Source of the DNA: a virus
DNA: 52,653 nt
Strand: one strand, 5' to 3'
UHGV virus genome: UHGV-0083175
Below the pieces are notes generated by a model, which was given only the letters and a program-made list of their open reading frames with translations, did no database searches and was not told where the DNA came from. This document shows, one piece after another, positions 6,628 to 35,334 of this stretch; within the stretch, counting starts at the first letter, position 1, and each line of letters opens with the position of its first letter. A program made the translations under genes and the position numbers.

Positions 6628-6990
6628 ATGCTCATAGATTTGGTTTTACCTTACCCGCCGACGGTGAACACTTACTGGCGACGCCGTGGCAGCACATATT
6701 TTGTATCAAAAGCCGGGGAGCGTTATCGCCGGGCAGTGGCGCTTATTGTTCGCCAGCAGCGGCTGAAATTAAGACTGTCCGGACGGCTGGCAATAAAAAT
6801 TATTGCAGAGCCACCGGATAAGCGTCGTCGTGACCTGGACAATTTTCTGAAAGCGCCGCTGGATGCGCTGACGCATGCAGGAATGTTAATGGACGATGAG
6901 CAGTTTGATGAAATCAATATTGTACGTGGCAAGCCAGTATCTGGTGGACGGCTGGAGATAAGAATTACAGAGGTGGGTGTGCATGAATAA
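6628..6990 (+). CDS. rusA: Holliday junction resolvase RusA
   Basis: 120 aa; RRRDLDNFLKAPLDALTHAGMLMDDEQ and GGRLEIRITE align with E. coli RusA. Confidence 0.9.
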   Translation: MLIDLVLPYPPTVNTYWRRRGSTYFVSKAGERYRRAVALIVRQQRLKLRLSGRLAIKIIAEPPDKRRRDLDNFLKAPLDALTHAGMLMDDEQFDEINIVRGKPVSGGRLEIRITEVGVHE

Positions 6991-7648
6991 CCAGTATTTA
7001 CAGTTTGTTCGTGAGCAACTCATGATTGCCACTGCGGATCTTAGTGGGTCGACAAAAGGCCAGCTGGAAGTCTGGCAGGAAAATGCCCTGTTCGATACAG
7101 GGCGTTACAGACGCAAAAAAATTCGTTACCGCGATGAGGTAACCGGAAAAATGATCACGCGGGATAATCCCCCGATCCCGGGTAAACAATCACTGGCGAA
7201 AGGCTCATCAATTGCCCTGGTCAGTCCGGTTGAGTTTTCGACATCATCATGGCGACGCGCCGTTCTGTCTCTTGAAGAACATCATAAAGCCTGGCTGCTG
7301 TGGTGTTACAGCGGTAGCATTTGCTGGGAGCATCAGATCGCGATAACGCAGTGGGCGTGGACTGAATTTAATGCTCAATCCGGTACCAGAAAAATTGCAG
7401 GAAAAACTCTGGTGCGCCTGAAGACGTTGATCTGGTTGGCGGCGCAGGCGGTAAAAGCTGAGCTTTTTGGTGGGGAAGGTTACGAATACCAGGAACTGGC
7501 GTTACTGGTGGGAGTAACAACCAAAAACTGGTCCAAGACATTTACTGGTCACTGGGTTGCAATGAAACACATTTTTCATCGGCTGGATAGTGAAGCTTTA
7601 TTGTTGGTGGAGGGAACTCGTTCAAAACAAAAGGCGGCATTTTCATAG
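6983..7648 (+). CDS. late-gene antiterminator Q-like protein
   Basis: ATG 6983 overlaps the rusA stop (ATGAATAA); ~220 aa; immediately upstream of a strong promoter and terminator, as expected for Q / PR' / tR'. Confidence 0.55.
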   Translation: MNNQYLQFVREQLMIATADLSGSTKGQLEVWQENALFDTGRYRRKKIRYRDEVTGKMITRDNPPIPGKQSLAKGSSIALVSPVEFSTSSWRRAVLSLEEHHKAWLLWCYSGSICWEHQIAITQWAWTEFNAQSGTRKIAGKTLVRLKTLIWLAAQAVKAELFGGEGYEYQELALLVGVTTKNWSKTFTGHWVAMKHIFHRLDSEALLLVEGTRSKQKAAFS

Positions 7649-10310: not shown

Positions 10311-10319
10311 TATCACATA

Positions 10320-12524: not shown

Positions 12525-12613
12525 TGTTTTTTCATCAGGCATATATTGATTGACTGTATTAGATATAGTCTGAATGTGTTCAGCATAAAAAGTTATAATC
12601 ATTTGGTGTTTGC

Positions 12614-13377: not shown

Positions 13378-13469
13378 GCGGGAAAAGGCTGTGTTGTTAA
13401 GTGTTAAATTCCTCACAGTTCAGATGGTTGATGCTTGCCTGTCTGAGGGGGAGTTGTTAAAAAAGTTCT

Positions 13470-13637: not shown

Positions 13638-13729
13638 CAGGGAAAAGGCTGTGTTGTGAAATGTTAAATTCCTCACAATTCATGAGGTTGATGATTGTCT
13701 GATTGATGAGGAGTTTGTTAAAAAAAACG

Positions 13730-20639: not shown

Positions 20640-20840
20640 TCATTTCTCGTTATTTGTCATGCTGGCCGGACGCAGATGCGTTGCATCTGTTGCCAGCCTT
20701 CTCCTGCAGGCTTCAATAACCCACGCTGAAAAGTTACCGGACCCTTTATGCTCAAGGGCGATGTTGATCTGTTCAATCATGTGATTGGGGAAACGGATAT
20801 TGCGGGTTGTGGTTCTGCGGGTCCGGTTTTTCGATGACAT
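20640..20840 (-). CDS. ribbon-helix-helix (Arc/CopG-like) DNA-binding protein
   Basis: Internal start MSSKNR...; RNIRFPNHMIEQINIALEHKGSGNFSAWVIEACRRRL; homologous to the N-terminus of the satellite gene at 24057..24419. Confidence 0.5.
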   Translation of the reverse strand: MSSKNRTRRTTTRNIRFPNHMIEQINIALEHKGSGNFSAWVIEACRRRLATDATHLRPASMTNNEK

Positions 20841-20881
20841 ATTTATTTCCTTTACTGATTGCCATATGACGGGGATTTTAC

Positions 20882-21247
20882 ATGGCTGAGCTTCGTACAC
20901 TCCAGAGCAGAATCAAAACACTGAATACCCGACGGGTGAATATTCTGAAGGGTGAACAGCGTCGTGTCAGTGGCAGTGCACGTGTTTCCCTCAAGCGTCA
21001 TATCTGGCTCAGGGATGCCGGGCAGTGCTGTCTCTGTGGTCGTGTGGTTGACCTCTGTGACAGTGAACTCGATCACCGAATTGCACTTCAGTTCGGTGGT
21101 GGTAATGAGGAGACGAATCTCTGGACGCTCTGTACCGAATGCCATCGACAAAAGTCTGCTCGTGAAGCGGCGGGTGGTATGCCGGACCCGACGCTGCCGG
21201 AGGTGTCCGGAGGTAGTGGCAGAGCGGACGACATCATCGGACTGTAA
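20882..21247 (+). CDS. HNH endonuclease (packaging-associated)
   Basis: CLCGRVVD...ELDHRIALQFGG...NLWTLCTECH HNH motif; immediately upstream of a cos-like site and terS. Confidence 0.8.
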   Translation: MAELRTLQSRIKTLNTRRVNILKGEQRRVSGSARVSLKRHIWLRDAGQCCLCGRVVDLCDSELDHRIALQFGGGNEETNLWTLCTECHRQKSAREAAGGMPDPTLPEVSGGSGRADDIIGL

Positions 21248-21538: not shown

Positions 21539-22102
21539 GTGCTGACAACGCAAAAACGAAAATTTGCGCTGGCGCTCATGTCCGGGAAAAACAAAACAGC
21601 GTCAGCCATTGCCGCCGGTTATTCGGCGAAGACAGCCAGGGTTAAAGGCTCGCAGCTGGCAAAAGATCCGGAGGTGCTCGCGTTTATAGCCCGTAAGCAG
21701 TGCGAGACGGTAGAGGTGGATGAGGTTCCTGTTTACCGGCAGAAAAAATCAGAGCAGGAGGATAAACCCCGTCGCCGTGAGGCGGCTGCAATACCACAGC
21801 CGGACGAAACAAATCCGGAGATGCCTCTGCCCGTGGTGATATCTCCTGGTATTGAGTATATGGATGACGGTCTTCCCGATCCGGTGAAAGCGATGGGGCG
21901 TCTTCTGGTGGAGAACATTAATACCGACCCCAGGCTGGCGCTGGATGTGGCTTATAAGCTGGCACAGTTCACGCACCACAAAAAAGGGGATGCCGGTAAA
22001 AAATCGGCAAAAGGTGACGCGGCGAAAAAAGCGGCTAACCGTTTTGCGGTGCCACCACCCCCCCGACTGGTGGTGAATAATGATAATGAGGGCAGCGGAT
22101 GA
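21539..22102 (+). CDS. terminase small subunit
   Basis: N-terminal HTH KRKFALALMSGKNKTASAIAAGYSAKTARVKGSQLAKDPEV; directly upstream of the terL N-terminal fragment. Confidence 0.8.
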   Translation: MLTTQKRKFALALMSGKNKTASAIAAGYSAKTARVKGSQLAKDPEVLAFIARKQCETVEVDEVPVYRQKKSEQEDKPRRREAAAIPQPDETNPEMPLPVVISPGIEYMDDGLPDPVKAMGRLLVENINTDPRLALDVAYKLAQFTHHKKGDAGKKSAKGDAAKKAANRFAVPPPPRLVVNNDNEGSG

Positions 22103-22380
22103 TACCTGTGTGGAGCACGGCCTGCCCGGACTGGGCAGAGCGCCTGAAAAAGGGGCTGTCGATTATTCCGGCTCCGATTTACCCGGACCAGGCCGCACAT
22201 GCCCTGGCGATTTTTAAACAACTGCGGATTGTGGATGCACCGGGCAGCCCGACGTTCGGGGAGTCCTGTGCACCGTGGGTGTTTGATCTGGTGGCTGCCC
22301 TGTTTGGCTCCTACGATGCGCAGACCGGTGTACGCCATATAAAGGAAGTGTTCATTCTGATACCGAAAAATAATAGATAA
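22099..22380 (+). CDS. terminase large subunit, N-terminal fragment (gene split by satellite insertion)
   Basis: 93 codons ending ...KEVFILIPKNNR*; the remaining terL sequence resumes in frame ~9.5 kb downstream (...IPKKNSKSTLAAG...). Confidence 0.7.
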   Translation: MIPVWSTACPDWAERLKKGLSIIPAPIYPDQAAHALAIFKQLRIVDAPGSPTFGESCAPWVFDLVAALFGSYDAQTGVRHIKEVFILIPKNNR

Positions 22381-22543
22381 TAAAAAAACAAATAAAGTGT
22401 TTATTTGTTTTTTTCTACGTTTTATCAAATAGTTATGGTTATCTTTGCTCTATGTTTTTATGTGTTGCTAACGGCAGATTTTAACGCTTTGTTGTTGACA
22501 TGGACTAACCGATGAACCATAAACTTTATCTGTAGGGGCATTT

Positions 22544-23779
22544 ATGCTAATCAAACCGTTAAGCCATGTTGAAGTAAAGAACGCAAAACCAAAGGATAAA
22601 GATTACTCGCTTCATGATGGATTTGGGTTGTTGTTATATGTTTCAAGAAAAGGCTGTAAAACATGGCGTTTCAGGTATCAGCACCCCGACACCAAAAAAA
22701 GACAAACGCTTACCATTGGTCGTTATCCAGATTATTCAATAGCTGAGGCAAGAGAGGAAAGGGATAAAGCAAGGAAATTACTTTCAAGAGGTGTGGATCC
22801 TAATGAGTCTAAGCGCAAGGCAAAATCTGAACGAATTATGCTGAGGTCACAGACCTTTGAAAAAATAACAAATAACTGGTTTGAATTGTATTTAAAGGGA
22901 AGCAGAAGGGAAAATACAGTAAAAACAGTTAGCAGAGTTATTAAAGTTTATATTATTCCTGATTTTGGGGGTTGGACGATTTATGATATACGTGCTGATA
23001 ATGTATTGTCAGTTATTAGAAAATATGACGAAACGCCTGCACAGCAACGAAAAATAGTACAGGTTATGCGTCTTGTTATGGATTATGCCGTGAATGCTGG
23101 AATTGTTCAGTTTAATCCGTTGTCTCGTATTCATAAAGCGCTTCCACCTATGGAAGAGAAAAGCTTTAAGGCGCTGCCCATAGAAAGATTACCCGCTTTT
23201 CTTAATTGGCTTGAGTCAGAAAGTTGTCATCCATCAATAACATATGGTCTTCTTTTTATGATGCTGACAATGACCAGACCTAACGAGGCATTAGGTGCCA
23301 AATGGTCAGAACTGGACGTTGACAGAAAACTATGGACCATTCCAGCAGAGAGGATGAAGGGGAAAAGAGAACACATTATTCCTTTATCTTTACAGGCTGT
23401 TGAAGTGATAATGCGAATGAGAAAAATAAAACAAAGTGAGTATGTTTTTTTTGGTGCTCATTCAGTTGCAAAGGCAATAACGAGAGATGCTATTGTCAGT
23501 AGGGTTAATAAAAGCGAGTTTGCAAAGGAAATGACAGTACACGGATTCAGGTCAATGTGGAGCACATTACTCAATGAAGAGGGATTTAACCCCGATGTTA
23601 TAGAGGCTGCACTTGCACATAAGAGCGGAAATACTGTAAGGGATATTTATAACAGGACGTCATATATTGAACAGCGGGTAATAATGATGCAATGGATAGG
23701 TGATTTTGTCGATTCTGCAAGACGTGGGGTTATTGTTAGGACGCATGGTAAACGCGGTTTAAAATTGGTAAATGAATAA
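22544..23779 (+). CDS. int: tyrosine integrase (P4-type)
   Basis: 411 aa; P4-integrase-type N-terminus and C-terminal catalytic domain (HGFRS...LAH...Y); adjacent to the left junction. Confidence 0.85.
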   Translation: MLIKPLSHVEVKNAKPKDKDYSLHDGFGLLLYVSRKGCKTWRFRYQHPDTKKRQTLTIGRYPDYSIAEAREERDKARKLLSRGVDPNESKRKAKSERIMLRSQTFEKITNNWFELYLKGSRRENTVKTVSRVIKVYIIPDFGGWTIYDIRADNVLSVIRKYDETPAQQRKIVQVMRLVMDYAVNAGIVQFNPLSRIHKALPPMEEKSFKALPIERLPAFLNWLESESCHPSITYGLLFMMLTMTRPNEALGAKWSELDVDRKLWTIPAERMKGKREHIIPLSLQAVEVIMRMRKIKQSEYVFFGAHSVAKAITRDAIVSRVNKSEFAKEMTVHGFRSMWSTLLNEEGFNPDVIEAALAHKSGNTVRDIYNRTSYIEQRVIMMQWIGDFVDSARRGVIVRTHGKRGLKLVNE

Positions 23780-23791
23780 GGTGTACAATAT

Positions 23792-23998
23792 ATGAATGAT
23801 ATAAATAATAGTCAGATTTTGTTGCGTGATGATGTGATGAAAAAATTGCGATACAACAACGCGGCTGCTTTTCATATGTTTTTTAACAGAACGCCGGACT
23901 TTCCAAAGCCCTTCAAGATAGGCCGTCGCAATGCCTGGTATGAAGAGGATGTGCAAAATTGGCTTGATGAACAGCGAAGAAAAGCCCTTGAGGAGTGA
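23792..23998 (+). CDS. alpA: AlpA-family excisionase / transcriptional regulator
   Basis: 68 aa; FPKPFKIGRRNAWYEEDVQNWL matches the AlpA/Xis HTH signature; immediately downstream of int. Confidence 0.7.
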   Translation: MNDINNSQILLRDDVMKKLRYNNAAAFHMFFNRTPDFPKPFKIGRRNAWYEEDVQNWLDEQRRKALEE

Positions 23999-24056
23999 AC
24001 GTAAAAGAACAGGCGTCCTTAAAGGTCGCCTGTTATGTAGTAGTGGAATATTACAA

Positions 24057-24419
24057 TCATGTTTTTTTTGATGCTATGTAAGCAAGAATGCACGGTTCCT
24101 TTGCCAGTTGTGACCCTTTCGATCTGGCTGTTTTCGCACTGTATCCAGCAAGAATAGCGCACTGTGTCTGATTCAGCCCTTTCATCATGTAATCAGCAAA
24201 TTTCTTTTTTTGCTTCGTCAGCTTGTTTGTTTGGTCGTTTTTATCATCGTTTGCGGTAAAAACATTAGATGTGGTCTTAAGCTGATGTTTACAGGCTTCA
24301 ATTACCCACGATGAGAAGTTGGAGTGCGCTTTATCTCTTTCTATGCGTTTTTCAATATCAGCTAATAAGTCAGGCGGGAAGCGGATCCCCTTAAGTATCG
24401 CTTTGCGTGTTTTGTCCAT
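24057..24419 (-). CDS. RHH domain fused to a terS-like HTH domain (putative satellite regulator)
   Basis: N-terminal GIRFPPDLLADIEKRI...NFSSWVIEACKHQL (RHH); C-terminal KKKFADYMMKGLNQTQCAILAGYSAKTARSKGSQLAKEP near-identical to the helper TerS N-terminus. Confidence 0.55.
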   Translation of the reverse strand: MDKTRKAILKGIRFPPDLLADIEKRIERDKAHSNFSSWVIEACKHQLKTTSNVFTANDDKNDQTNKLTKQKKKFADYMMKGLNQTQCAILAGYSAKTARSKGSQLAKEPCILAYIASKKT

Positions 24420-24692
24420 TCATGGCCCCAAAATAAGTAGTGTTAACTTGTTACTATTTAACAGTTTTTGAGGGTGTGTTAAACAAAAAACTGGTTTGTG
24501 TTTAACGAAAATCGCTTCGTGTTAAACACGTTGCCTAGTTAGTGGGGACAGATGACGAGTTGATCAAACCTGCCGGATAACAGGCAAAGAAAAGGCCACC
24601 TGTCACGGTGGCCCTTCGACACAAATTTCGCGTTATCCCCAACGCATGAGCATCGCCGACAATGCCACATTTACGGCTGGTGGACAAGGCTA

Positions 24693-24920
24693 TCAGCCAG
24701 GCGGTCGGTTTTTAGTGGCTTTTAACCGCCGTGGGTATTTCTCGACAAAATCTTCAAGGGCAAATTTTTCTGGTGGCATTAAGCGCGGCGCTGGTGGTGG
24801 TATTTTTGTTCTGGTTAGTTCTTCCTCAACTCTGGCGCAGGCTTCTGACTGCCTTTGCCGGATGATTTCATCATCTTGCGTTTGCGTGTCTTGTATTGGT
24901 GATAGTGTGTTGTTGGTCAT
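24693..24920 (-). CDS. hypothetical protein
   Basis: 75-aa minus-strand ORF downstream of the small RHH gene; weak RBS. Confidence 0.3.
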   Translation of the reverse strand: MTNNTLSPIQDTQTQDDEIIRQRQSEACARVEEELTRTKIPPPAPRLMPPEKFALEDFVEKYPRRLKATKNRPPG

Positions 24921-24977
24921 GATACTGCCCTGTAAAGCAATGCGCCGTAGTACCTCACACCACGGCGCTGATAGTGA

Positions 24978-25157
24978 TTATTCTGATTCTTTGGCCTTGC
25001 GGCGCTGGCGGCGTTTGATCTCGCCTTTTGCTGCCGTAACTAGAAATCCGGCGGTACTTTCGCCAGGTTCTTTAAGTTGCTCAATATCGGTCATTACCTC
25101 ATGCGGGATTCTGACCGTTGTCATTTGTGATTTTGCGTTCTTTGCACCTGTTGCCAT
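24978..25157 (-). CDS. small DNA-binding protein (possible satellite repressor)
   Basis: 59-aa ORF with AGGAGA RBS (MATGAKNAKSQMTTVRIPHEVMTDIEQL...); faces a divergent promoter region containing inverted repeats. Confidence 0.45.
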   Translation of the reverse strand: MATGAKNAKSQMTTVRIPHEVMTDIEQLKEPGESTAGFLVTAAKGEIKRRQRRKAKESE

Positions 25158-25177
25158 TTCTGGTTCTCCTGATAATC

Positions 25178-25270
25178 GGTGTATTTCAGTATACGCAAAA
25201 AAAAAGATAAAAAAAGTCTTGCGGTGTATTTCACCTGAATGTAGATTTAAAAATGAAGGTGAAATACACC
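25178..25270. promoter_or_regulatory. operator-like inverted repeats in the satellite divergent control region
   Basis: GGTGTATTTCACC (25223-25235) and its exact reverse complement GGTGAAATACACC (25258-25270), plus a third half-site GGTGTATTTCAG at 25178. Confidence 0.45.
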
Positions 25271-25343
25271 TAAAACAACAACGCCCCGCAGTGATGGGAA
25301 CACATACGGGGCGTCTAACCAACAACGTAAACGAGGAGCCGTT

Positions 25344-25541
25344 ATGGTTGCCGTAAATCATATACCACACCTTGTACACACACAAACGGCCTTTGTGTGG
25401 CGTTTTCTGGCACTGAGTGCCGGAGAATCTCAAATCATCCACGTAACCGCCTGGACGGAACGCGAAGCGCGTAACCGTTGCCCGTCCGGTTGTGTTGCTG
25501 TATTTGCCGCCCGTATTCGTCAGGAGGTGCGCCATGATTAA
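25344..25541 (+). CDS. hypothetical protein (first gene of the satellite rightward operon)
   Basis: 65-aa ORF with GAGGAG RBS. Confidence 0.35.
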   Translation: MVAVNHIPHLVHTQTAFVWRFLALSAGESQIIHVTAWTEREARNRCPSGCVAVFAARIRQEVRHD

Positions 25542-25746
25542 TCTGTCACTTACTGACCTTAACCGCATTCAGTTTCGTGAGAAATTCACAGGGCAGCTAC
25601 TGGTCAATGTGGATAAAGGTCGCGTGGTGTGTAATTACCACTTACCAGATGAAGCAATTGTCGCCACAAGGGAATCATTACAGGAAATCACAAAACGTGC
25701 CGGAATGATTAACACGAATATTCAGGGGATGCTTTATGCACAATAA
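25534..25746 (+). CDS. hypothetical protein
   Basis: Internal ATG with CAGGAGGTG RBS; 70 aa. Confidence 0.4.
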   Translation: MINLSLTDLNRIQFREKFTGQLLVNVDKGRVVCNYHLPDEAIVATRESLQEITKRAGMINTNIQGMLYAQ

Positions 25747-25975
25747 AACCACACCGGACGCAGCCGCCGAAGCCATCAAAACGCTGATGCACGCGCTGAT
25801 TGATATTTCTGTTATCGCGGACAGGGCACATAAGCACGCCACCAGCGAAACAGAATATGCCGGTGCTTTCGTTCCTCACTCACTGGCTGTCATGCAATTT
25901 AGTGCTGATACGGCGCTGAATGAGGCCAAAGCTATCCTGATTGCTGATTGTGAAAATGGGGGGGGTTATGCGTGA
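25736..25975 (+). CDS. hypothetical protein
   Basis: 79-aa ORF, translationally coupled to neighbours. Confidence 0.35.
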   Translation: MHNKTTPDAAAEAIKTLMHALIDISVIADRAHKHATSETEYAGAFVPHSLAVMQFSADTALNEAKAILIADCENGGGYA

Positions 25976-26201
25976 TGATCGTTTTAATTCCCTGAAACAG
26001 GAATTTTCCGGCGTTCCTGATGATGCGGCTGATGCGCTTTCGTCAATGCCAGAACTTATTAGAGCGGCTTTTTTCTTACTTTCCACGAGAGAATATAAAT
26101 CAACGGGGCTTGATGTACTGAATATCGCCGCCGATTATGCGGAATATGTGGCAGAGGCGCGTTATAGAAGAAAATTTCCTGAGGATGTAAGCCATGCGTG
26201 A
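25968..26201 (+). CDS. hypothetical protein
   Basis: Internal start MRDDRF... of ORF 25941..26201. Confidence 0.35.
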   Translation: MRDDRFNSLKQEFSGVPDDAADALSSMPELIRAAFFLLSTREYKSTGLDVLNIAADYAEYVAEARYRRKFPEDVSHA

Positions 26202-26427
26202 TATTTACCACCAAACAATAGACCGCGCATTTCTTGCACTTTCTCACAGTGAAAACATGATGGAAATATTGCGCATATGGCTTGAAACACTTGGCGACAA
26301 TGAACGCGACAAACAAAAATCAAGAATTGCCACGGCATTAATAACGCTTCTTGAGCCTGTAATAATGGAACTGCAAGAAATAGATCTATTGCACGACAGA
26401 TATAAAGAACAGCACATCGGAGAATAA
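26194..26427 (+). CDS. hypothetical protein
   Basis: 77-aa ORF overlapping the upstream stop. Confidence 0.35.
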   Translation: MRDIYHQTIDRAFLALSHSENMMEILRIWLETLGDNERDKQKSRIATALITLLEPVIMELQEIDLLHDRYKEQHIGE

Positions 26428-26432
26428 AAATA

Positions 26433-26732
26433 ATGAAACTTAAATATTCTGGCTTAACTGCCAGTGGCAACACTCACCCTAAATTTACGCGCGGTGATAT
26501 TTACCGCGACCAGTACGGCGGCACGGTAATGATTAAGGGCGTGGCGGGACGGTGCGTAACTTACCGCCGTGAAGGTTACGAATATGATTGCGTGATGCCT
26601 GTTTATCAGTTCCGGCGTGATTTTTCTCTGGTACAGACCGCGCCGCATAACGTGCCCACCAGCAACGCCAGGGCACGGGCAAACATCCAGAAGCTGAAAA
26701 CCATGATTAACGGATTCAGGGGTAAAAAATGA
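26433..26732 (+). CDS. hypothetical protein
   Basis: 99-aa ORF immediately upstream of the primase-helicase gene. Confidence 0.4.
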   Translation: MKLKYSGLTASGNTHPKFTRGDIYRDQYGGTVMIKGVAGRCVTYRREGYEYDCVMPVYQFRRDFSLVQTAPHNVPTSNARARANIQKLKTMINGFRGKK

Positions 26733-28126
26733 AACTGGCACCGAATGTAAAACTGTTACCGAAAGATAAACACACCGAAGCGGTTATTTTTGCGGGTGAT
26801 AATGCTCACTCATTTGCAGAGCACTACATCATTGCACAGGCCAAAAAAGCAGGCGATCCAGTCCCTCCCGTTTACCTGGGGCGTTATCAGTTAAGCGAAC
26901 TGGATAACTTGCAGATTGTTGATAAAGGTCGGTTCAGGGCGAAAGTGATACGTGCCGGAAATATTGACGAAGTGCAGTTGTTAACCATCGCCACGAAACT
27001 GGCAATCGCAGGAGTCCAGGAAGCGCGCCTGTTTTCTGAAAATTTCGAATTGCTGGAGGAATGGAGCGACCAGCTTACACGGCTTAGGGAGACATGGGAA
27101 CGCGGGGAAAGCCTGAGCCACCAGCGAAAAACAAAGCTACCGATGAGCGTTGGATCTGCCGGATACGACACGCAATTAGATTACGTGGTAAAGGGGATTA
27201 TTCCGGCATCGTCGCTATGCAGCATATACGGGGCGAGCGGTTCATATAAATCGTTCCTTGCGGGTTCGTGGGCGTGTCACGTTTCCACGGGCCGCCAGTG
27301 GGGAGGCCGCAGGGTTGCACATGGTGCAGTTCTCTATGTGGTTGGTGAAGGCGGTATTGGTGTTCCGCGTCGTGTAAAAGCCTGGGAGGTTGTGCACGGT
27401 GAGCAGGTGAAAAATCTGTATCTGGTAAACCGTCCCATCTTTCCGGCTGTCCCGCTTGATGTTGATGAAATGGTTATCGCTGCCCGCCAGGTGGAACGGG
27501 AAACCGGTAAACCTGTACGCATGATTATTCTGGATACGCTGGCGCGTTGCTTTGGCGGCAATGATGAAAATGACTCCCGCGACATGGGGGCATTTATCCG
27601 TGGTTGTGACGAGCTTAAACGGCGCACAGGGGCCACTGTGCTGGTGGTTCACCATTCCGGCAAGGATGAAACAAAGGGGGCGCGTGGTTCCAGTGCATTT
27701 CGTGCTTCGCTGGATGCTGAATACCGGATACGCAGGGAGGACGCAGGAAGCGAAGCGCTGGTTATCTCATGCACCAAAATGAAGGACGCGGAGGAACTCA
27801 AAGAGGCTGCCTATGATTTGCGGGTGGTGGAGCTTTTTACCGACGCTGACGGGGAGTTAATCACGTCGCTGGTGGTGGTGGATAAGTCGCGCCCTCCCGT
27901 TGAACTGGAGCGCATCGAAGAGGCAGGCAACAAGACGGAAAACCATACCGCGCTATGGGGGTGTATCCGTTCACGCACACAGAACGGCGACAAGTGCACG
28001 ATCCCGCTGTTACGTGATGACATGAAAAAACTGGGGTACGAAATAAAGCACTTCCGGCGCTGGCTGGGCAAGCTGGAAAAAGACGGCGTTATCTATGTTG
28101 ACGGCGATGATGTAGGGCCACTGTAA
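26729..28126 (+). CDS. satellite replication protein (RecA-fold primase/helicase-type ATPase)
   Basis: 465 aa; Walker A-like GASGSYKSFLAG, Walker B region MIILDTLARCFGGNDEND and VLVVHHSGKD. Confidence 0.75.
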   Translation: MKLAPNVKLLPKDKHTEAVIFAGDNAHSFAEHYIIAQAKKAGDPVPPVYLGRYQLSELDNLQIVDKGRFRAKVIRAGNIDEVQLLTIATKLAIAGVQEARLFSENFELLEEWSDQLTRLRETWERGESLSHQRKTKLPMSVGSAGYDTQLDYVVKGIIPASSLCSIYGASGSYKSFLAGSWACHVSTGRQWGGRRVAHGAVLYVVGEGGIGVPRRVKAWEVVHGEQVKNLYLVNRPIFPAVPLDVDEMVIAARQVERETGKPVRMIILDTLARCFGGNDENDSRDMGAFIRGCDELKRRTGATVLVVHHSGKDETKGARGSSAFRASLDAEYRIRREDAGSEALVISCTKMKDAEELKEAAYDLRVVELFTDADGELITSLVVVDKSRPPVELERIEEAGNKTENHTALWGCIRSRTQNGDKCTIPLLRDDMKKLGYEIKHFRRWLGKLEKDGVIYVDGDDVGPL

Positions 28127-28328
28127 AAAGTGGGGGGCAAAAGTGGTGGGCATGGGGAATTTAACAAAATTTAAACACGACCCCCCACTTTTTGACCTGT
28201 ATACATCCCAAAAAGTGGGGAGCAAAAAAATACTTATGAAACAGCATGATAAAAATTACAAATCCCACGCCTTTAACGAGATGGGGAATTGTGAAAAGTG
28301 GGGAGTAAAAGTGGGTATAGGTGGGGAG
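28127..28328. repeat. iteron cluster (candidate satellite replication origin)
   Basis: Repeated AAAGTGGGG(A/G) motifs at 28127, 28140, 28210, 28294, 28307, 28320 plus inverted copy CCCCCCACTTTTTG at 28181, directly after the replication gene. Confidence 0.5.
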
Positions 28329-28580
28329 ATGACACAAAAACGCAGAGACAGAACACAGCCAAAATATAAAGCGTTAGACATGACAGAGCACGCTTTAAAG
28401 GTGGCAATCAGAACGATAGACCGCCACGCGGGGGAAGGATACGCGAAGGAACATCCCGACCTGATAAGCGCATTCATGACCACAGCGGCGGCAAACTTTG
28501 CCACGCTGACAGAACGGGAGATTGCCGAAGCGGAACAGGTAACAACCATCAACGTTAAAACCGGAGAGTTGGAATCATGA
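28329..28580 (+). CDS. hypothetical protein
   Basis: Internal start MTQKRRD... chosen because upstream codons lie in the iteron region. Confidence 0.35.
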   Translation: MTQKRRDRTQPKYKALDMTEHALKVAIRTIDRHAGEGYAKEHPDLISAFMTTAAANFATLTEREIAEAEQVTTINVKTGELES

Positions 28581-28882
28581 GCGAACCAAAATTTGGTGAA
28601 AAACTTTACAAGCACAACGGACGGATCACGATTCTGCAAATAAGCGCAGCTACACCAGGCTGGTGGGTTGAAACAGACGAAGGATCCTCACCCGTGGCAT
28701 CATGGGCGCTTTGTGCGCTTAGTTACCCTGACCGCGATGTGTATCAGGATATTCTGCCTGTGATATCCACTGACAAAGGCATGAAACCCGTAGACATCAA
28801 AAACATGGGTTTTCAGTGCGTAATGCTCACTGAAAAAATGATGGAAGAGATGAAAAAGAACAACGCCGGATCGCTTCACTGA
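28577..28882 (+). CDS. hypothetical protein
   Basis: 101-aa ORF overlapping the upstream stop. Confidence 0.4.
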   Translation: MSEPKFGEKLYKHNGRITILQISAATPGWWVETDEGSSPVASWALCALSYPDRDVYQDILPVISTDKGMKPVDIKNMGFQCVMLTEKMMEEMKKNNAGSLH

Positions 28883-28891
28883 GGTGGCAAT

Positions 28892-29290
28892 ATGACAGCA
28901 CAAATTGCAGCTTACGGGCGGCTGGTGGACGACCCGCAGGTAAAACAGACCAGCAAGGGCACACCGATGACGCTGGCGCGTATGGCGGTATCTTTGCCAT
29001 GCAGCCAGGCACAGGACGGACAGGCGACGTTATGGTTATCGGTCATCGCATTTGGCAAACAGGCCGACTTCCTGGCTAAACATCAAAAAGGAGATGTTGC
29101 CAGCGTATCCGGCACGATGCAGGTAAGCCAGTGGACAGGCCAGAACGGCGAAACGCGGCAGGGCTGGCAGGTTATCGCAGACAGCGTAATCAGTGCCCGA
29201 GGCGGGAACAGACGCAAAACCACAGGCACACAGGGTAATCAGCCACCAGCGGGAGGCGATGACCCTTACGGTGATGGTATTCCGTTCTGA
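28892..29290 (+). CDS. ssb: single-stranded DNA-binding protein
   Basis: OB-fold-like core (LARMAVS...LWLSVIAFGKQAD...) and acidic C-terminal tail ending DDPYGDGIPF. Confidence 0.7.
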   Translation: MTAQIAAYGRLVDDPQVKQTSKGTPMTLARMAVSLPCSQAQDGQATLWLSVIAFGKQADFLAKHQKGDVASVSGTMQVSQWTGQNGETRQGWQVIADSVISARGGNRRKTTGTQGNQPPAGGDDPYGDGIPF

Positions 29291-29300
29291 GGGGGTGAGG

Positions 29301-29573
29301 ATGGTACATGACCGCATAGCGGAGGAACTCGAGGCGAAAGGATTTTACCGGAGGGCGGCGGCGCGATGGGGTGAAGTCATGCAGCTGGTGGAGACAGACA
29401 AGGAACGGTATCAGGTTACGATGCGACGGCTGGAATGTTCCAGGAAGGCACAGAAGCCACCGGAGCCGCCGGATAACTTCGGAGACCTGAGAAAGGCAGT
29501 CGATCGCACTTATGCTGAAATGGGTATAGATGGTGCAGGCGATGAAGTATGGCGTAATTACCCAGACAGCTAA
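29301..29573 (+). CDS. PerC-family transcriptional regulator-like protein
   Basis: Internal ATG 29301; AEELEAKGFYRRAAARWGEVM resembles the PerC/Pch N-terminal motif. Confidence 0.45.
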   Translation: MVHDRIAEELEAKGFYRRAAARWGEVMQLVETDKERYQVTMRRLECSRKAQKPPEPPDNFGDLRKAVDRTYAEMGIDGAGDEVWRNYPDS

Positions 29574-29579
29574 GCACAT

Positions 29580-29603
29580 AGCCGGAGCAATCCGGCTTTT
29601 TTT
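29580..29603 (+). terminator. rho-independent terminator
   Basis: AGCCGGA-gcaa-TCCGGCT stem followed by TTTTTTT. Confidence 0.6.
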
Positions 29604-29691
29604 CGATCTCACATATCTTTAAAAATGGTTGATTGATTATAATCTATCGAAAATAATGATTATGAGATGATAAGCATCAGGAGGAAACAAA

Positions 29692-29886
29692 GTGGAACAG
29701 ATAAAGCAAAGCGCTACCGTGATGATTGATCACGAGATCCTAAACGAGCTTAAAAAACTTCAATTCGATGTTATTCGCCGGATGAATGAAGCTGGTATAT
29801 ACGGCAGAGCCGCCACGCCAACAGTAGGCCATCTTGCTCGCGTGCTGTTACGCGAACGCCTGGGCATTGCAACAGGTGAGGAATAA
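29692..29886 (+). CDS. hypothetical protein
   Basis: GTG start after AGGAGGA RBS; 64 aa. Confidence 0.35.
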   Translation: MEQIKQSATVMIDHEILNELKKLQFDVIRRMNEAGIYGRAATPTVGHLARVLLRERLGIATGEE

Positions 29887-29888
29887 CA

Positions 29889-30050
29889 ATGGTTATCACA
29901 GAACGCGAGGCAAGCATCATTAAAGCCATTGGCGAGGAAACAAGAGACACGATAGCGCCATTAATGGAAAAGATCGCAGAGCTTGAGACACGAATAAACA
30001 AGCTGAGTGATGAAGTTGAAGGCCTGATCTCGTTACTCGGTGAGCAATGA
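29889..30050 (+). CDS. small protein resembling the N-terminus of the helper head-associated repeat protein
   Basis: 53 aa, MVITEREASIIKAIGEE... versus MNERELSIIRALGEEF... at 36907; ends at the satellite cos-like site. Confidence 0.35.
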   Translation: MVITEREASIIKAIGEETRDTIAPLMEKIAELETRINKLSDEVEGLISLLGEQ

Positions 30051-30112
30051 CAGGGGGGGGGGAGTGTTCCGGCCGGAAAGTCGATCGCCCTGGACACCGC
30101 CCCCCGTCTCAT
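30051..30112. other. candidate cos site of the satellite
   Basis: G-run, GTCGATCGCCCTGGACACC core and C-run, paralogous to 21250..21312. Confidence 0.45.
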
Positions 30113-30180
30113 TCGTAGAAAATTTTGCTTTTCAAAAAAGTTACACGAAAAGTTACACCCCCTCAAAACGAGGTTTTTGC

Positions 30181-30669
30181 ATGGCATTAACGACCAAAAA
30201 AAAGCGGTTTGCTGATGCGTTATCAAGGGGCGCAAATCCCACGGAAGCCGCTATACATGCGGGATACAGCGAAAAGACCGCAAGGGTTAAAGGCTGGCAG
30301 CTATCCAACGATCCTGAGGTGAAAAAGTATCTTAAGGTTGTCACTCCTGATGTAACTTTTCAGGTTACAAAACCGAAAAAAGTTACAAAGAAAGTTACCG
30401 AAAAAGTTACACCGGAACGGGCATCAATCAGCACCATAGAACGGATGGACAACGGCTTGCCCGACCCTATCAAAGCTATGGGCAGGATACTGGCTGACAA
30501 CATAGACACAGATCCAAAACTGGCTTTAGATGCCGCGTTTAAGCTGGCCCAGTTCACCCACCGCAAGATCGGCAGCATTGGGAAAAAAGAGGTTAAAAAA
30601 CTCAATGCCGCGAATGTCTCCTCAAATCGGTTCCCCATCCCTAAGCCACCAACAGGCTTAAAACACTGA
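30181..30669 (+). CDS. terminase small subunit (satellite copy)
   Basis: Internal ATG 30181; N-terminal HTH KKRFADALSRGANPTEAAIHAGYSEKTARVKGWQLSNDPEV and C-terminal LALDAAFKLAQFTH homologous to the helper TerS. Confidence 0.75.
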   Translation: MALTTKKKRFADALSRGANPTEAAIHAGYSEKTARVKGWQLSNDPEVKKYLKVVTPDVTFQVTKPKKVTKKVTEKVTPERASISTIERMDNGLPDPIKAMGRILADNIDTDPKLALDAAFKLAQFTHRKIGSIGKKEVKKLNAANVSSNRFPIPKPPTGLKH

Positions 30670-30680
30670 GGTAGCGAACT

Positions 30681-30842
30681 ATGAACGAATACATCACAGA
30701 CCCTATTGATGTACTCACGGAAATCATGAACGACAAGCAGCAGCCAACCGAAATACGGTTACAGGCTGCCGCTGTTCTGATGCCATATTTTCACGAAACT
30801 CTAACCCCATGTTACCAGGAGGAAGAAGATGATGATTTCTAA
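30681..30842 (+). CDS. hypothetical small acidic protein
   Basis: 53-codon ORF between satellite terS and the MCP-like gene; not in the supplied track. Confidence 0.3.
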   Translation: MNEYITDPIDVLTEIMNDKQQPTEIRLQAAAVLMPYFHETLTPCYQEEEDDDF

Positions 30843-31755
30843 AAACATGAAAGGCGTGTCGGCAGTTCGCGCCGCCAGCGTGCTTACATCGTGTAAATTC
30901 AGCCATGCAGACGCAATTGAAATGACGAAAAAAAATGATCCGGCAGTATCGAAATTTCTTGAAAAATCCATTGTTGCCGGAATGACTACGGATAATATGC
31001 CGTCGCTGGTGGCAGAGCCGATAGTAAGAGAGCTTGGCGAGTATATTTTTTCGCAGTCTGTACCAGGCAAGCTAATCAGCAGCGCGCTGAATCTTCCGTT
31101 TGGCGCAAAATTGCAGTCAATATCAGGCAAGGGTAGTAAATGGCTTAAAGAAGCCGAAGAAATCCCTGTCAAAGAGGGAGAAGTAAACGAAAGTGCGCTA
31201 AAACTGTGCAAACTTGGCGCTATTGTGATGCTGAATAACGAGCTAATCAAATTTAGCACCCCTGGTACCAATTCAGCGATCAGAGACTTGATCACATCGG
31301 AATCGGTGAAAGAAATAGATAAAAAATTTCTTTCCAGTGACCAGGAGTTGGCGGGCGTATCCCCTGAGGGCGTGCTTAATGGTGCTGATGAGGCCGAAAA
31401 CTTCATAGAGCTTTTCAAAAAGCACATAGCGAACGGTAACACGCTTGCCACGTCGTCGCTAATCTTGCCCGTAGAAAACGCCTTACAGCTTACTGATGCT
31501 GAGTTCTGGCAGATAGAGCTTTTGAGAATACCGGTAATTGTGAGCGAACAGGCGGATCGCATGATGCTGATAGACGCTCAAAAGCTGATTATTAACGTTG
31601 AAGCCACGGTTATAACCCCAACTGATGAGGCGGTAATAAAAACCGAATCAGGGACGGTTAGCCTTTTCCAGAATGACGCTACAGCGTTCAGGGCAATCAC
31701 CTATTGCGGATGGCAAAAACTCGATAAGGCCGTCACCGTTCTGGCGCAATCTTGA
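30829..31755 (+). CDS. major capsid protein homolog (HK97-fold MCP domain only)
   Basis: 308 aa with AGGAGGA RBS; aligns along its length with the MCP portion of the helper protease-MCP fusion (AGMTTD/AGTTTD, LGAIVMLNNELIKFSTPG / VSAIAVLTEELIRFSSPA, IPVIVSEQ / LPVIVSQY). Confidence 0.65.
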   Translation: MMISKNMKGVSAVRAASVLTSCKFSHADAIEMTKKNDPAVSKFLEKSIVAGMTTDNMPSLVAEPIVRELGEYIFSQSVPGKLISSALNLPFGAKLQSISGKGSKWLKEAEEIPVKEGEVNESALKLCKLGAIVMLNNELIKFSTPGTNSAIRDLITSESVKEIDKKFLSSDQELAGVSPEGVLNGADEAENFIELFKKHIANGNTLATSSLILPVENALQLTDAEFWQIELLRIPVIVSEQADRMMLIDAQKLIINVEATVITPTDEAVIKTESGTVSLFQNDATAFRAITYCGWQKLDKAVTVLAQS

Positions 31756-31974
31756 TGTAGTGCGCCGCATTACTGGTTATGTGAATGCGGCGCATAGGGC
31801 CTACGAAAAACAAAATTAGTTTACGTTATCTTATGTAACCATATTTAACGGAGAAGACTAAAACGCGGACTATTTAGTGTCAGTGCGTGAGCCTAACAGC
31901 ATAATAAACAAGATATTAAGATAGCTTTACGCATACCCAAAAAAAACAGCAAGTCCACGCTGGCTGCCGGGATC

Positions 31975-33333
31975 ATGATGACGGCGCTGTTACTGAACTG
32001 GCGGCAGGCGGCGGGCTACACCATTCTGGCCCCGACCGTGGAGGTGGCGGCTAATGCCTTCAATCCTGCCAGGGATATGGTACGACGGGACGATGATCTG
32101 GATGACCTCTGTCAGGTGCAGACACATATCCGGACCATCACCCATCGGGTGACGGACACCACCCTGAAGGTGGTGGCAGCCGATCCGAATACGGTGTCCG
32201 GTATCAAGTCCGTGGGGACACTGATTGATGAACTGTGGCTGTTTGGCAAGCAGTACAAAGCGGAGGACATGTTACGTGAAGCCATAGGTGGCCTTGCCTC
32301 CCGCCCGGAAGGGTTTGTGGTGTATACGACCACCCAGTCGAATGAACCGCCCGCCGGGGTGTTCAGACAGAAACTGCAGTACGCCCGGGATGTGCGCGAC
32401 GGCAAAATTCATGATCCGCACTTTCTGCCGGTGATATTTGAGCATCCGCCGGAGATGGTGGAGCGCGGTGAGCACCTGCTGATGGAAAACCTCGCCATGG
32501 TCAATCCGAATCTCGGTTATTCGGTGGATGAGGCCTTTCTGTACCGGGAGTATCGTAAAGCCCGGGAAGCCGGTGAAGATACATTCCGGGGGTTCATGTC
32601 AAAACACGCCAATGTGGAAATTGGTCTTGCCCTGCGTTCTGACCGCTGGGCGGGTGCGGATTTCTGGGAGCAGCAGGGCAGGCGCGTCAGCCTGGACGAT
32701 ATTCTGCAGCGCGCTGATGTGGTGACGGTGGGGATTGACGGCGGGGGCCTGGATGATCTGCTGGGAATGTACGTGATTGGCCGTGACAGGGAAACCCGCG
32801 AATGGCTGGGCTGGGGCCATGCCTGGGCGCATGAAACCGCGGTGGTCAGACGGAAGAGTGAGGCATCCCGTTTTCAGGATTTTGTGGCCTGTGGAGACAT
32901 GACGATTGTCCGTCGGGTCGGGGATGACACGGCGGAAGTGGCGGAGTATGTGCGTCGTATTCATGAGGCTGAGTTACTGGATCATATCGGTATTGACCCG
33001 TCAGGTGTGGGGCAGATTCTGGATTCACTGGCGGAAGCCGGGATCCCCGACGGAATTGTTGTGGGGATAAGCCAGGGCTGGAAGCTGGGCGGGGCCATCA
33101 AAACCACCGAGCGCAAACTGGCTGAGGGAGTGCTGGTGCATGGTGGTCAGCCACTGATGGCCTGGTGCGTTGGCAATGCCCGGGTGGAGCCTAAAGGTAA
33201 CGCCATCCTTATTACCAAACAGGCCAGCGGACGGGGGAAAATTGACCCGCTGATGGCGCTGTTCAATGCGGTATCCCTGATATCCCTGAATCCGGAGCCC
33301 AAAAAGAAAGAATATGCGGTTTTTTTCATATAA
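31975..33333 (+). CDS. terminase large subunit, C-terminal portion (split gene)
   Basis: Frame open upstream to 31897 with no start codon, encoding ...IPKKNSKSTLAAGIMM (Walker A-like); LIDELW Walker B, nuclease motifs VTVGIDGGG and IGIDPSG. Confidence 0.7.
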   Translation: MMTALLLNWRQAAGYTILAPTVEVAANAFNPARDMVRRDDDLDDLCQVQTHIRTITHRVTDTTLKVVAADPNTVSGIKSVGTLIDELWLFGKQYKAEDMLREAIGGLASRPEGFVVYTTTQSNEPPAGVFRQKLQYARDVRDGKIHDPHFLPVIFEHPPEMVERGEHLLMENLAMVNPNLGYSVDEAFLYREYRKAREAGEDTFRGFMSKHANVEIGLALRSDRWAGADFWEQQGRRVSLDDILQRADVVTVGIDGGGLDDLLGMYVIGRDRETREWLGWGHAWAHETAVVRRKSEASRFQDFVACGDMTIVRRVGDDTAEVAEYVRRIHEAELLDHIGIDPSGVGQILDSLAEAGIPDGIVVGISQGWKLGGAIKTTERKLAEGVLVHGGQPLMAWCVGNARVEPKGNAILITKQASGRGKIDPLMALFNAVSLISLNPEPKKKEYAVFFI

Positions 33334-33396: not shown

Positions 33397-35334
33397 GTGA
33401 CTCTTAAACGGGCCTGCTCCCTGCTGACGGTGAAATCCTTCAGTGAGGATGAGCGGGTGATCACCGGGATTGCGTCAACGCCTTCTCCGGATCGGGATGG
33501 TGACATCCTGGAGCCGGAGGGCGCGGAGTTTGGCAGTGCGATCCCGTTTCTCTGGCAGCATGACCATTCCCGCCCGGTGGGGCAGTGTACGGTGCGCCGG
33601 GTCAGCGAAGGGCTGGAAATCACGGCAACACTGGTGAAGCCCGTGCCGGATATGCCGTCGCAACTGGCTGCCCGGCTGGATGAGGTCTGGGCGGCCATTA
33701 AGACCGGGCTGGTCAGGGGGCTGTCCGTGGGCTTCCGTCCCCATGAATACACCTTTCTGGACGGAGGTGGACTGCATTTTCTGCGCTGGGAGCTGATGGA
33801 GGTGTCTGCCGTTACCGTGCCCGCGAATGCGGAATGCACCATCCGGACCATTAAATCTTACGACCGCCCGTTTTCTGCCGCGTCCGGCAACCGGAAACCG
33901 GTGGTGAAAATCGCATCTTCTGCCGGCGCTGCGGCACAGTCAACAACCGTTTTTCATAAGGAAAAGACCATAATGAATATTGGCGAACAGATTAAAAGTT
34001 TTGAAAACAAGCGTGCAGCGCTGGCAGCCTCCCTTGAGGAGGTCATGACCAAAGCCGCAGAGGAAGGGCGCACGCTGGATGTGGAGGAGGAGGAGCATTA
34101 CGACAACACCGCAGCGGAAATCCGTCAGGTGGATGCGCACCTGAAGCGCCTGCGTGAACTGGAAGCCGGTAAGGCCGCCACGGCGCAGCCAGTGAAACAG
34201 GCCGGTAACGGGAATGTGGCCGCGGTGGCTTCTGCGCCGGTGATCCGTGTGGAGCAGAAACTGGATAAGGGGATTGGTTTCGCACGTTTTGCCAAATCGC
34301 TGGCTGCGGCTAAAGGTGTCCGCTCTGAAGCCCTGGAAGTGGCCCGTCGTCAGTATCCGGATGACAGTCGTCTGCATCATGTCCTGAAATCGGCAGTGGG
34401 CGCGGGGACCACCACGGATCCGCAGTGGGCAGGCAGCCTGTCTGAATATCAGGAATACGCACAGGACTTTATTGATTACCTGCGTCCTCAGACCATTATC
34501 GGGCGATTTGGTCAGGGCGGGATCCCTGCACTTCGTCAGGTGCCGTTCAATATCCGTGTGCACGCCCAGGTGTCCGGCGGTGCTGCCGGCTGGGTGGGTG
34601 AGGGTAAGGCAAAACCCCTGACGAAGTTTGATTTTGAATCCATCACCTTCAGTCATGCGAAGGTGTCGGCCATTGCGGTACTGACGGAAGAATTGATCCG
34701 TTTTTCCAGTCCGGCTGCTGATGCACTGGTCCGTAATGCGCTGGCGGAAGCGGTGGTGGCGCGTCTGGATACAGACTTTGTGGACCCGAAAAAAGCGGCG
34801 GTGGCAGATGTCTCCCCGGCGTCCATCACCCATGATGTGAAGGGCACGGCATCAAGCGGTAACCCGGATGCGGATGCAGAGGCTGCGTTTGGACAGTTTG
34901 TGGCAGCAAACCTGCAGCCCACCGGTGCGGTCTGGCTGATGTCCAGCACAAATGCCCTGGCACTGTCCATGCGTAAAAATGCGCTGGGTCAGAAAGAATA
35001 CCCGGACATGACCCTGCTGGGTGGCTCCTTCCAGGGGCTGCCGGTGATTGTCTCTCAGTACGTGGGTGACCAGCTGGTGCTGGTGAATGCCCCGGATATT
35101 TATCTGGCGGATGACGGCGGCGTGGCAGTGGATATGTCCCGCGAGGCATCACTGGAAATGCAGTCTGAGCCGACCGGCGACAGTACCACGCCGTCGCCGG
35201 TGGAGCTGGTTTCCATGTTCCAGACAGGCAGCGTGGCCATCCGTGCGGAGCGCTGGATCAACTGGCGTCGTCGCCGTACCGCGGCGGTGGCGGTGATCAC
35301 CGGAGTGAACTATGGCAGTGCGTCCGGCGGCTGA
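33397..35334 (+). CDS. prohead protease fused to major capsid protein (HK97 type)
   Basis: N-terminal S78-protease-like region (GIASTPSPDRDGDILEP...LWQHD...SAVTVPAN), then scaffold-like coiled coil and HK97-fold MCP domain. Confidence 0.8.
   Translation: MTLKRACSLLTVKSFSEDERVITGIASTPSPDRDGDILEPEGAEFGSAIPFLWQHDHSRPVGQCTVRRVSEGLEITATLVKPVPDMPSQLAARLDEVWAAIKTGLVRGLSVGFRPHEYTFLDGGGLHFLRWELMEVSAVTVPANAECTIRTIKSYDRPFSAASGNRKPVVKIASSAGAAAQSTTVFHKEKTIMNIGEQIKSFENKRAALAASLEEVMTKAAEEGRTLDVEEEEHYDNTAAEIRQVDAHLKRLRELEAGKAATAQPVKQAGNGNVAAVASAPVIRVEQKLDKGIGFARFAKSLAAAKGVRSEALEVARRQYPDDSRLHHVLKSAVGAGTTTDPQWAGSLSEYQEYAQDFIDYLRPQTIIGRFGQGGIPALRQVPFNIRVHAQVSGGAAGWVGEGKAKPLTKFDFESITFSHAKVSAIAVLTEELIRFSSPAADALVRNALAEAVVARLDTDFVDPKKAAVADVSPASITHDVKGTASSGNPDADAEAAFGQFVAANLQPTGAVWLMSSTNALALSMRKNALGQKEYPDMTLLGGSFQGLPVIVSQYVGDQLVLVNAPDIYLADDGGVAVDMSREASLEMQSEPTGDSTTPSPVELVSMFQTGSVAIRAERWINWRRRRTAAVAVITGVNYGSASGG

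Follow-up and report, generated by a model that had tools for sequence, protein, structure and literature searches.

Phage satellites that reside inside a late gene of their own helper prophage have been named helper-embedded phage-inducible chromosomal islands (HE-PICIs), the founder being Eco567.11capE (hereafter 11capE; Tommasini, Mageeney and Williams, 2023; PMC10111431). Experiments with 11capE, which sits in a lambda-like capsid gene, showed that the composite of prophage and satellite excises, then replicates, and that the satellite excises afterwards (PMC10111431). The same survey, explicitly restricted to integrases scoring at least 400 bits against the 11capE integrase (Int), reported 14 sites, two of them in the large terminase gene terL (A:Terminase_1:132 and A:Terminase_1:245/246), and discussed co-orientation, read-through late transcription, regulated gene integrity, off-target copies and truncated helpers, the last being frequent among HE-PICIs (PMC10111431). 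Here, we describe UHGV virus genome UHGV-0083175, a stretch of 52,653 nt (the window), in which the terL gene of a lambdoid Escherichia coli prophage is interrupted by an insert of 9.57 kb, one copy of the att core included. We hold with good confidence that the insert is a satellite of PICI type, that the P4-type integrase which it encodes placed it in the Walker-A codons (ATA CCS AAA AA) of an HK97-type terL, and that it represents the HE-PICI arrangement reached by a separate integrase lineage at a new site. We infer from the sequence that the prophage would be the helper, that the satellite would be able to excise and that its excision would be coupled to packaging.

A first reading of the DNA, made without database searches (the sequence-only reading), had taken a satellite living inside the packaging gene of its helper to be an undescribed arrangement. 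This cannot be upheld: the arrangement is already published as HE-PICI, two other terL sites included, and is not categorically new. What appears to be new is the combination of a separate integrase lineage and a Walker-A site with the same arrangement, and the whole integrase clade appears to share a tropism for late genes.

The likeness to HE-PICIs is extensive. In both cases, a PICI-type satellite of about 10 kb lies inside a late gene of a lambdoid prophage, in the same orientation, and the gene stays broken until excision; both carry an int-alpA pair, DUF4222, replication and SSB genes and a late zone of captured helper-like head and packaging genes; and in both, off-target chromosomal copies occur occasionally and the host prophages are sometimes degraded. 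In the window, terL is split by an element whose attP brings no replacement sequence, so that the gene is destroyed by the insertion, and the satellite genes for Int, the AlpA-like protein, RepA, SSB, TerS and the capsid homologue lie on the + strand, as do Q, terS, terL and the head and tail genes of the prophage. The differences concern the integration module above all. The window Int reaches 88 bits (25% identity) against 11capE Int, below the inclusion cutoff of the published survey, and the island lacks the doubled TGTATTGC attP motif reported as unique to HE-PICIs. In the island there is no exact match to TGTATTGC, only two single half-sites with one mismatch each at -177 and +101, and no doubled copy, whereas HE-PICIs carry the doubled motif tgTGTATTGCantgTGTATTGCa at about -81 and +132 of the attP centre. 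The two HE-PICI groups at A:Terminase_1:132 (Klebsiella) and A:Terminase_1:245/246 (E. coli, Escherichia albertii, Arsenophonus) likewise occupy the large-terminase gene of the helper, but at profile positions ~132 and ~246 as against ~30 here, with att cores aatatcacga and ttaccaa/tcacgaa, respectively, and with integrases of the other clade. In the part of the published HE-PICI material available to us, the TerL Walker-A codons are not among the 14 sites, and neither the att core nor the terL position of the window occurs in the attL/attR files, whose only terminase sites are 132 and 246. Finally, 11capE has no terS and is presumed to use the cos packaging of its helper, whereas the window element encodes a TerS homologue.

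The split terL gene and its recurrence

The terL gene is interrupted between 22360-22376 and 31933-31949, and the features at the two junctions are as follows:

22099..22380, + strand: terL N-terminal fragment, 93 codons, its start overlapping the terS stop
22360..22376, + strand: attL, an imperfect repeat of 17 bp (to 22376) with the core identity block ATACCGAAAAA at 22360-22370
22382..22414, + strand: AT-only perfect 15-bp inverted repeat followed by a T-run, just inside attL; dG -9.8 kcal/mol, z -3.1
31933..31949, + strand: attR, with the core identity block ATACCCAAAAA at 31933-31943; alignments of empty sites begin at 31933
31933..33333, + strand: terL C-terminal fragment, its frame open from 31897 without a start codon; first ATG at 31975

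The N-terminal fragment is 98.7-99.5% identical to intact terL up to 22370-22376 and ends as KEVFILIPKNNR (IPKNNR) with a stop at 22380, four codons past the core, because its reading frame enters satellite DNA. About 9.5 kb downstream, the C-terminal fragment contains RIPKKNSKSTLAAGIMM in its open frame, which extends to 33333. The proposal that these are the two halves of a single gene, abutting without loss, was fully confirmed. Joined in silico at the repeat, they form an open reading frame (ORF) of 1662 nt and 553 amino acids (aa), in frame and with zero codons missing, which carries the ATPase and nuclease domains and reads ATTCTGATACCSAAAAAAAACAGCAAG across the restored junction. Nine complete E. 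coli genomes contain, in genes annotated as an intact 'terminase large subunit', a perfect (100%) match to the first 612 nt of this join, junction included; matches covering at least 80% of these 612 nt occur in 1251 of 5426 E. coli genomes; and in strain 2013C-3181 the intact terL has the same length, exactly 1662 nt. A natural stop or gene boundary at this position in intact phages was considered as well and is ruled out, the intact homologues being continuous ORFs of 553 aa.

Alignment with HK97 TerL (6z6d) places ILIPKKNSKST opposite LSIARKNGKTG, which we take to be the P-loop/Walker-A signature of that protein, so that the split falls within the Walker-A motif, as the sequence-only reading had proposed. 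The imperfect direct repeat that it had noticed is likewise present (ATACCGAAAAATAATAG at 22360 and ATACCCAAAAAAAACAG at 31933), and the window holds exactly two copies of the motif ATACCSAAAAA, one per junction, where chance would give 0.05. The empty prophage of 2013C-3181 aligns with the window flanks at 96.6% (upstream) and 99.2% (downstream) identity, and the empty-prophage alignments to the two flanks overlap by exactly the 11-bp core (L011, 9262-9272). A crossover in this core would restore ATA CCS AAA AAA AAC AGC, that is, the intact gene. The reconstructed attP has the core CGCATACCCAAAAATAATAG and the junction TTTACGCATACCCAAAAATAATAGATAAT. As had also been claimed, the prophage in the window retains no intact terL, and precise excision in silico rebuilds the ORF as it is found in empty-site relatives. 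In the window attL, a G replaces the C at core position 6 (CCG versus CCC, synonymous for Pro), which is most simply explained as a variant of the original attB allele lying to the left of the crossover. The AT-only inverted repeat just inside attL is kept in all related attL sequences and may serve as a hairpin resembling a terminator or, in the attP arm, as a site for protein binding.

The same two junctions were found in only one of 5426 complete RefSeq E. coli genomes, that of strain 90-3040, which is 96.5% identical at the junctions and encodes an integrase 99% identical to that of the window, a primase replacing the RepA helicase. In the wider collection, the exact integrase is present in 69 sample blocks, and 45 blocks contain a variant of it at 99% identity. 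Since attL/attR junctions identical to these recur both in a complete RefSeq chromosome and across numerous independent assemblies from NCBI and Logan, we reject an assembly chimera of a satellite contig with a prophage contig, the probability of which is practically nil.

We read 16 loci, window included, in which the integrase is 99-100% identical. Thirteen of them are at this terL position, where they span two diverged terL alleles (CTGATACCCAAAAA and CTTATCCCCAARAA) and differ in cargo, which includes either a RepA helicase or a D5 primase. The remaining three are at two chromosomal secondary sites sharing only a short A-rich core with attP: inside an MFS-transporter gene adjoining deoR/pfkB-type genes, only AAAAA is common with attP, and at a yobH-proximal site, attL is CCGAAAAA and attR was not recovered. 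These chromosomal copies of the same integrase (L004/L010 and L030) parallel the off-target copies of the HE-PICI literature. They could also be taken, together with a sibling backbone at tRNA-Pro, to mean that an ordinary chromosomal PICI without any evolved preference for terL has landed there by accident. We find this extremely unlikely: 13 of 16 loci lie at exactly this terL position; terL, with its 11 bp of identity, is the best match to attP, the chromosomal sites having only a short A-rich core in common with it, as secondary sites would; and the tRNA-Pro sibling has a different integrase. Moreover, three integrase subclades from different hosts use the same Walker-A codons, an integrase 69% identical to that of the window (in Salmonella) and another 58% identical (in an ENA metagenome assembly) both cutting TerL at the same I-P/S-K-K-N codons. 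From this comparison of loci we conclude that integration is site-specific and recurrent at the terL Walker-A codons.

One copy (L006; GCA_051562845.1 contig, 1-13719) has the usual terL attL junction, while its right side runs via a ClpP-protease/capsid fusion into chromosomal clpS-clpA. The terL C-terminal fragment was not recovered there, and the rest of the host prophage may have been lost by rearrangement or deletion.

The integrase lineage

P4 and P4-like elements, which integrate in tRNA-Leu or ssrA, have the closest characterised type of integrase. The window Int matches P4 Int at 34% identity (224 bits), and 11capE Int scores 69 bits against P4 Int. None of the 120 nearest relatives of the window Int exceeds 113 bits against 11capE Int. 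All nine relatives sampled at 40-69% identity lie directly downstream of a phage late gene and are co-oriented with it. The contexts comprise the TerL Walker-A codons (in two subclades), a protease-capsid gene, a tail assembly chaperone gene and a lambda-like tail region (259 sample blocks); a gpA-type TerL truncated after the ATPase domain, between the ATPase and nuclease domains; and positions after a DUF2213 head gene, at a portal/protease junction and after a DUF6651 head gene; positions adjoining head-decoration, cement and scaffold genes are among these contexts. Apart from the terL cases, they were judged by flanking genes rather than by mapped att sites. In IMG/VR, which is biased towards viral contigs, 52 loci combine at least 40% integrase identity with sufficient upstream sequence; a late gene precedes 48 of them, three are chromosomal and one is unassigned. 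A 37%-identical relative is found beside smpB, in a P4-like element carrying Psu.

A crude neighbour-joining tree of 15 taxa groups the late-gene integrases together in 60% of bootstraps and, in 75%, unites them with the P4 and ssrA integrases to the exclusion of 11capE; the late-gene clade and the 11capE clade come together alone in 0 of 300 bootstraps. These data lead us to favour, with moderate confidence, the existence of a second clade of integrases (at least ~40% identity) with an evolved tropism for prophage late genes, separate from the published clade, nearer to the P4 and ssrA integrases, devoid of the HE-PICI attP motif and occupying about nine late-gene contexts. If this is correct, helper embedding arose convergently or through integration modules being swapped repeatedly onto PICI backbones of the ordinary kind, and its distribution is wider than the 2023 survey was able to show. 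Residence in helper late genes would then not be peculiar to one integrase clade and looks to have been reached independently. Such an independent origin would strengthen the adaptive case for the cis arrangement, with its passive co-replication, late read-through expression and delayed helper packaging, and two unrelated integrase clades with the same tropism would offer a natural comparison for what sets the choice of a late-gene target.

We also observed a single prophage with two embedded satellites in adjacent late genes (L015/L017; ENA ERZ15232907 NODE_13, 124494-153288), one in the terL Walker-A codons and the other in the prohead protease(-capsid) gene, the two integrases being 65% identical.

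Gene content of the satellite

The insert contains the following genes:

22544..23779, + strand: tyrosine integrase of P4 type, 411 aa (Arm-DNA-bind_3, Phage_int_M and Phage_integrase)
23792..23998, + strand: AlpA-like small helix-turn-helix (HTH) protein, putative excisionase/activator (Phage_AlpA 20.1 bits, cutoff 21 bits)
24057..24419, - strand: fusion of DUF3950 (YlcI/YnfO) with a TerS N-terminal HTH; variable zone
24693-24920, - strand: small leftward ORF of 75 aa; divergent regulatory region
24978-25157, - strand: small leftward ORF of 59 aa, phrog_949; divergent regulatory region
25344-25541, + strand: Icd-like protein
after the Icd-like gene, up to 26427, + strand: four small ORFs (phrog_340, 2512, 2512 and 2196)
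26433-26732, + strand: DUF4222; replication module
26729-28126, + strand: RepA-type helicase with AAA_25 domain; replication module
28143..28882, + strand: two ORFs, phrog_1231 and phrog_27268
28892-29290, + strand: SSB
probable start 29301, end 29573, + strand: PerC-family regulator
29692..30050, + strand: two small ORFs of 64 and 53 aa
30178..30669, + strand: satellite TerS homologue (Terminase_2)
30681..30842, + strand: ORF of 53 aa, weakly similar to TerS family phrog_641
30829..31755, + strand: satellite HK97-type capsid homologue, 308 aa

By these predicted genes, the insert is organised as a Gram-negative PICI, with four zones made up of int and the AlpA-like gene, the DUF3950-TerS-N fusion and the Icd-like gene, the DUF4222/RepA/SSB genes, and the TerS and capsid homologues. 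At 9.57 kb, it is close to the ~10-15 kb usual for PICIs, with int and the AlpA-like gene at one end and its own replication module; no lysis, tail, portal or TerL genes were detected among the satellite ORFs scanned with Pfam and PHROGs. Judged by homology, the TerS and capsid proteins are candidates for the packaging and capsid hijack genes of PICIs. The satellite TerS is 46% identical to that of the host prophage, with conserved N- and C-terminal parts and a divergent middle, and the satellite capsid protein shares 22% identity with the capsid portion of the protease-capsid fusion encoded by the prophage. Satellite-type genes, as announced by the sequence-only reading, are present (int, AlpA-like, Icd-like, DUF4222, RepA helicase, SSB, PerC, TerS and capsid homologues). 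Of its P4-type integrase and alpA inside the left junction, the integrase is confirmed and the AlpA-like gene is in place with a Pfam score just under the cutoff; clear AlpA genes occupy the same position in relatives. The lower GC content ascribed to the insert holds against the downstream DNA (~0.47 versus ~0.57) and not against the upstream DNA (~0.49).

The backbone is shared with chromosomal Gram-negative PICIs of the EcCICFT073 type and includes the Icd-like gene, DUF4222, the RepA helicase and the TerS and capsid homologues; related backbones are present in 1846 of 5426 E. coli genomes. Chromosomal PICIs differ from the window element in their sites (tRNA or housekeeping genes), in their integrases and in interacting with the helper only in trans, whereas the window element lies in a prophage gene and only 3 of the 16 copies are chromosomal. 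One sibling, in E. coli JNEC-KY171, is inserted at tRNA-Pro and is 95.8% identical over the shared 54% of the island (replication and late modules). As this sibling combines a near-identical backbone with another integrase, a swap of integration modules seems to have taken place. The P4 hallmarks Psu, Sid, Delta, epsilon and alpha-primase were not detected among the island ORFs scanned with Pfam and PHROGs, and an Rfam scan of the island (E up to 0.1) gave zero matches to P4-type immunity RNAs. P4 also differs in its helper (P2, versus a lambdoid phage with an HK97-type head here) and in its target (tRNA/tmRNA, versus a phage gene here). The full head gene set of capsid-forming PICIs (cf-PICIs: capsid, protease, portal, connectors and TerS) is represented here by capsid and TerS homologues only. 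A Bro-N domain, present in relatives, is absent from the window copy, and the GenBank phage collection contains nothing that matches the island. Scans for promoter and terminator consensus sequences performed about as on shuffled controls (18 terminator-like hits versus 11.6 +/- 3.1), and we made no use of them.

The skin element in sigK and the comK prophage of Listeria are elements whose precise excision restores a gene, and the window element likewise splits an ORF that precise excision would restore. This class is mentioned in the HE-PICI paper (PMC10111431). The insert might accordingly be another integrative island, or a 'regulated gene integrity' switch, domesticated by the host or the phage, that governs late gene expression to the advantage of the phage itself, a reading that we regard as very unlikely. 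The phage can do without it: the same terL is uninterrupted in at least 1251 genomes, and the insertion is present in only a single one of 5426 complete genomes. The insert brings a replication module of its own together with TerS and capsid homologues, as PICIs typically do, and its cargo differs between copies in the manner of a mobile element. In addition, the gene that is split here is part of a different mobile element, and it is the satellite that would profit from the regulation.

The DUF3950-TerS-N fusion is cut to 43 aa in many sibling satellites. It echoes the YlcI gene of the prophage itself (20640-20900, - strand), which adjoins the HNH and terS genes.

The host prophage and the proposed coupling to packaging

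The host is a lambdoid E. coli prophage of the Stx-phage family without stx, and its closest phage relatives are Stx2 phages. It encodes, all on the + strand, Q, a methylase, two tRNA genes, a NanS-type esterase, lysis proteins, HNH, TerS, TerL, a protease-capsid fusion, a portal and a lambda-like tail, so that the satellite lies in the direction of the Q-dependent late operon and the + strand carries all genes from Q via the int, replication and late genes of the satellite to the tail genes. The window excludes the prophage ends and the immunity region, and prophage completeness cannot be judged from it. The host genes that matter here are the following:

6977..7648, + strand: Q antiterminator
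20882-21247, + strand: HNH endonuclease, upstream of the split
21539-22102, + strand: host TerS, upstream of the split
33397-35334, + strand: protease-capsid fusion, host head gene, downstream of the split
35546-38292, + strand: portal, host head gene, in two ORFs of 454 and 461 aa

By analogy with 11capE, induction of the prophage would cause the composite of prophage and satellite to excise and replicate, and the satellite would be amplified passively. Antiterminated late transcripts might then cross terS, the terL N-terminal fragment and the AT-only hairpin at 22382-22414 into int and the AlpA-like gene, whose products would excise the satellite and restore terL late. Once free, the satellite could replicate by its own RepA-type module, its TerS homologue could steer the TerL/HNH machinery of the helper to satellite DNA, and its capsid homologue could join or remodel head assembly. 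It is tempting to suggest that an attB placed in the best-conserved motif of the packaging ATPase provides a target that would outlast sequence divergence of the helper, while also making helper packaging wait for satellite excision. The Walker-A codons would thereby illustrate how a satellite can choose a target that is unable to drift in its helper.

Several observations speak against this scheme. The portal gene carries a frameshift, a 1-bp deletion in a G-run at 36890 (GGGGG versus GGGGGG in 2013C-3181, where the portal is intact with 915 aa), due either to a true inactivating mutation or to an error in sequencing the homopolymer, and a prophage with such a portal may lack competence as a helper. 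The host prophage of strain 90-3040 is clearly degraded, with an internal stop in terS, a frameshift in the portal and insertion sequence (IS) insertions. The AlpA assignment falls below the Pfam threshold. The reconstructed attP junction, as expected of an excised or packaged form, gave no exact match in IMG/VR or in JGI metagenome contigs, and a sensitive blastn search for a cos or pac site common to satellite and prophage returned only homology in the terS coding sequence and a 29-bp match in the YlcI genes. Finally, related terL copies are often present several times per genome, in up to seven places, so that TerL could come in trans, which would weaken the proposed coupling.

The defects of both host prophages, and the observation that many HE-PICI helpers look truncated (PMC10111431), raise the possibility that the insertion is genuinely site-specific and yet stranded, with a cryptic prophage, a trapped satellite and no coupling of excision to packaging in this strain. 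We consider this rather unlikely. Int is intact (411 aa, with many copies at 99% identity), and so are the terL halves, which match intact alleles at 99-100%; the AlpA-like gene, both att cores, terS, the tail genes and the protease-capsid fusion in the window are likewise intact. The one frameshift falls in a G-homopolymer and could reflect a sequencing error. An embedded satellite whose excision would restore terL remains our preferred reading. One practical consequence is that such elements make Stx-family prophages seem terL-defective to annotation pipelines, and that satellite finders miss them.

The host prophage shows some further peculiarities. The 3' part of the portal gene (37071-37838) contains tandem repeats with a period of ~162 bp, seen as staggered self-matches when the window is aligned to L011. 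Carriage of stx was considered in view of the Stx2-phage relatives and rejected: the stx2 position of related phages, downstream of Q, the methylase and a tRNA-Met/tRNA-Arg pair (10235-12524), is occupied instead by a TolA-C-like lipoprotein gene (10675-11103) and a gene for an AraC-family regulator (11799-12524). Finally, a complete OmpC/OmpF-type porin gene (45058-46212; Porin_1, E 6e-144) lies amid the lambda-like tail genes, after the tape-measure gene (41283-44525) and an ORF of 113 aa (44518-44859) and before the downstream tail genes.

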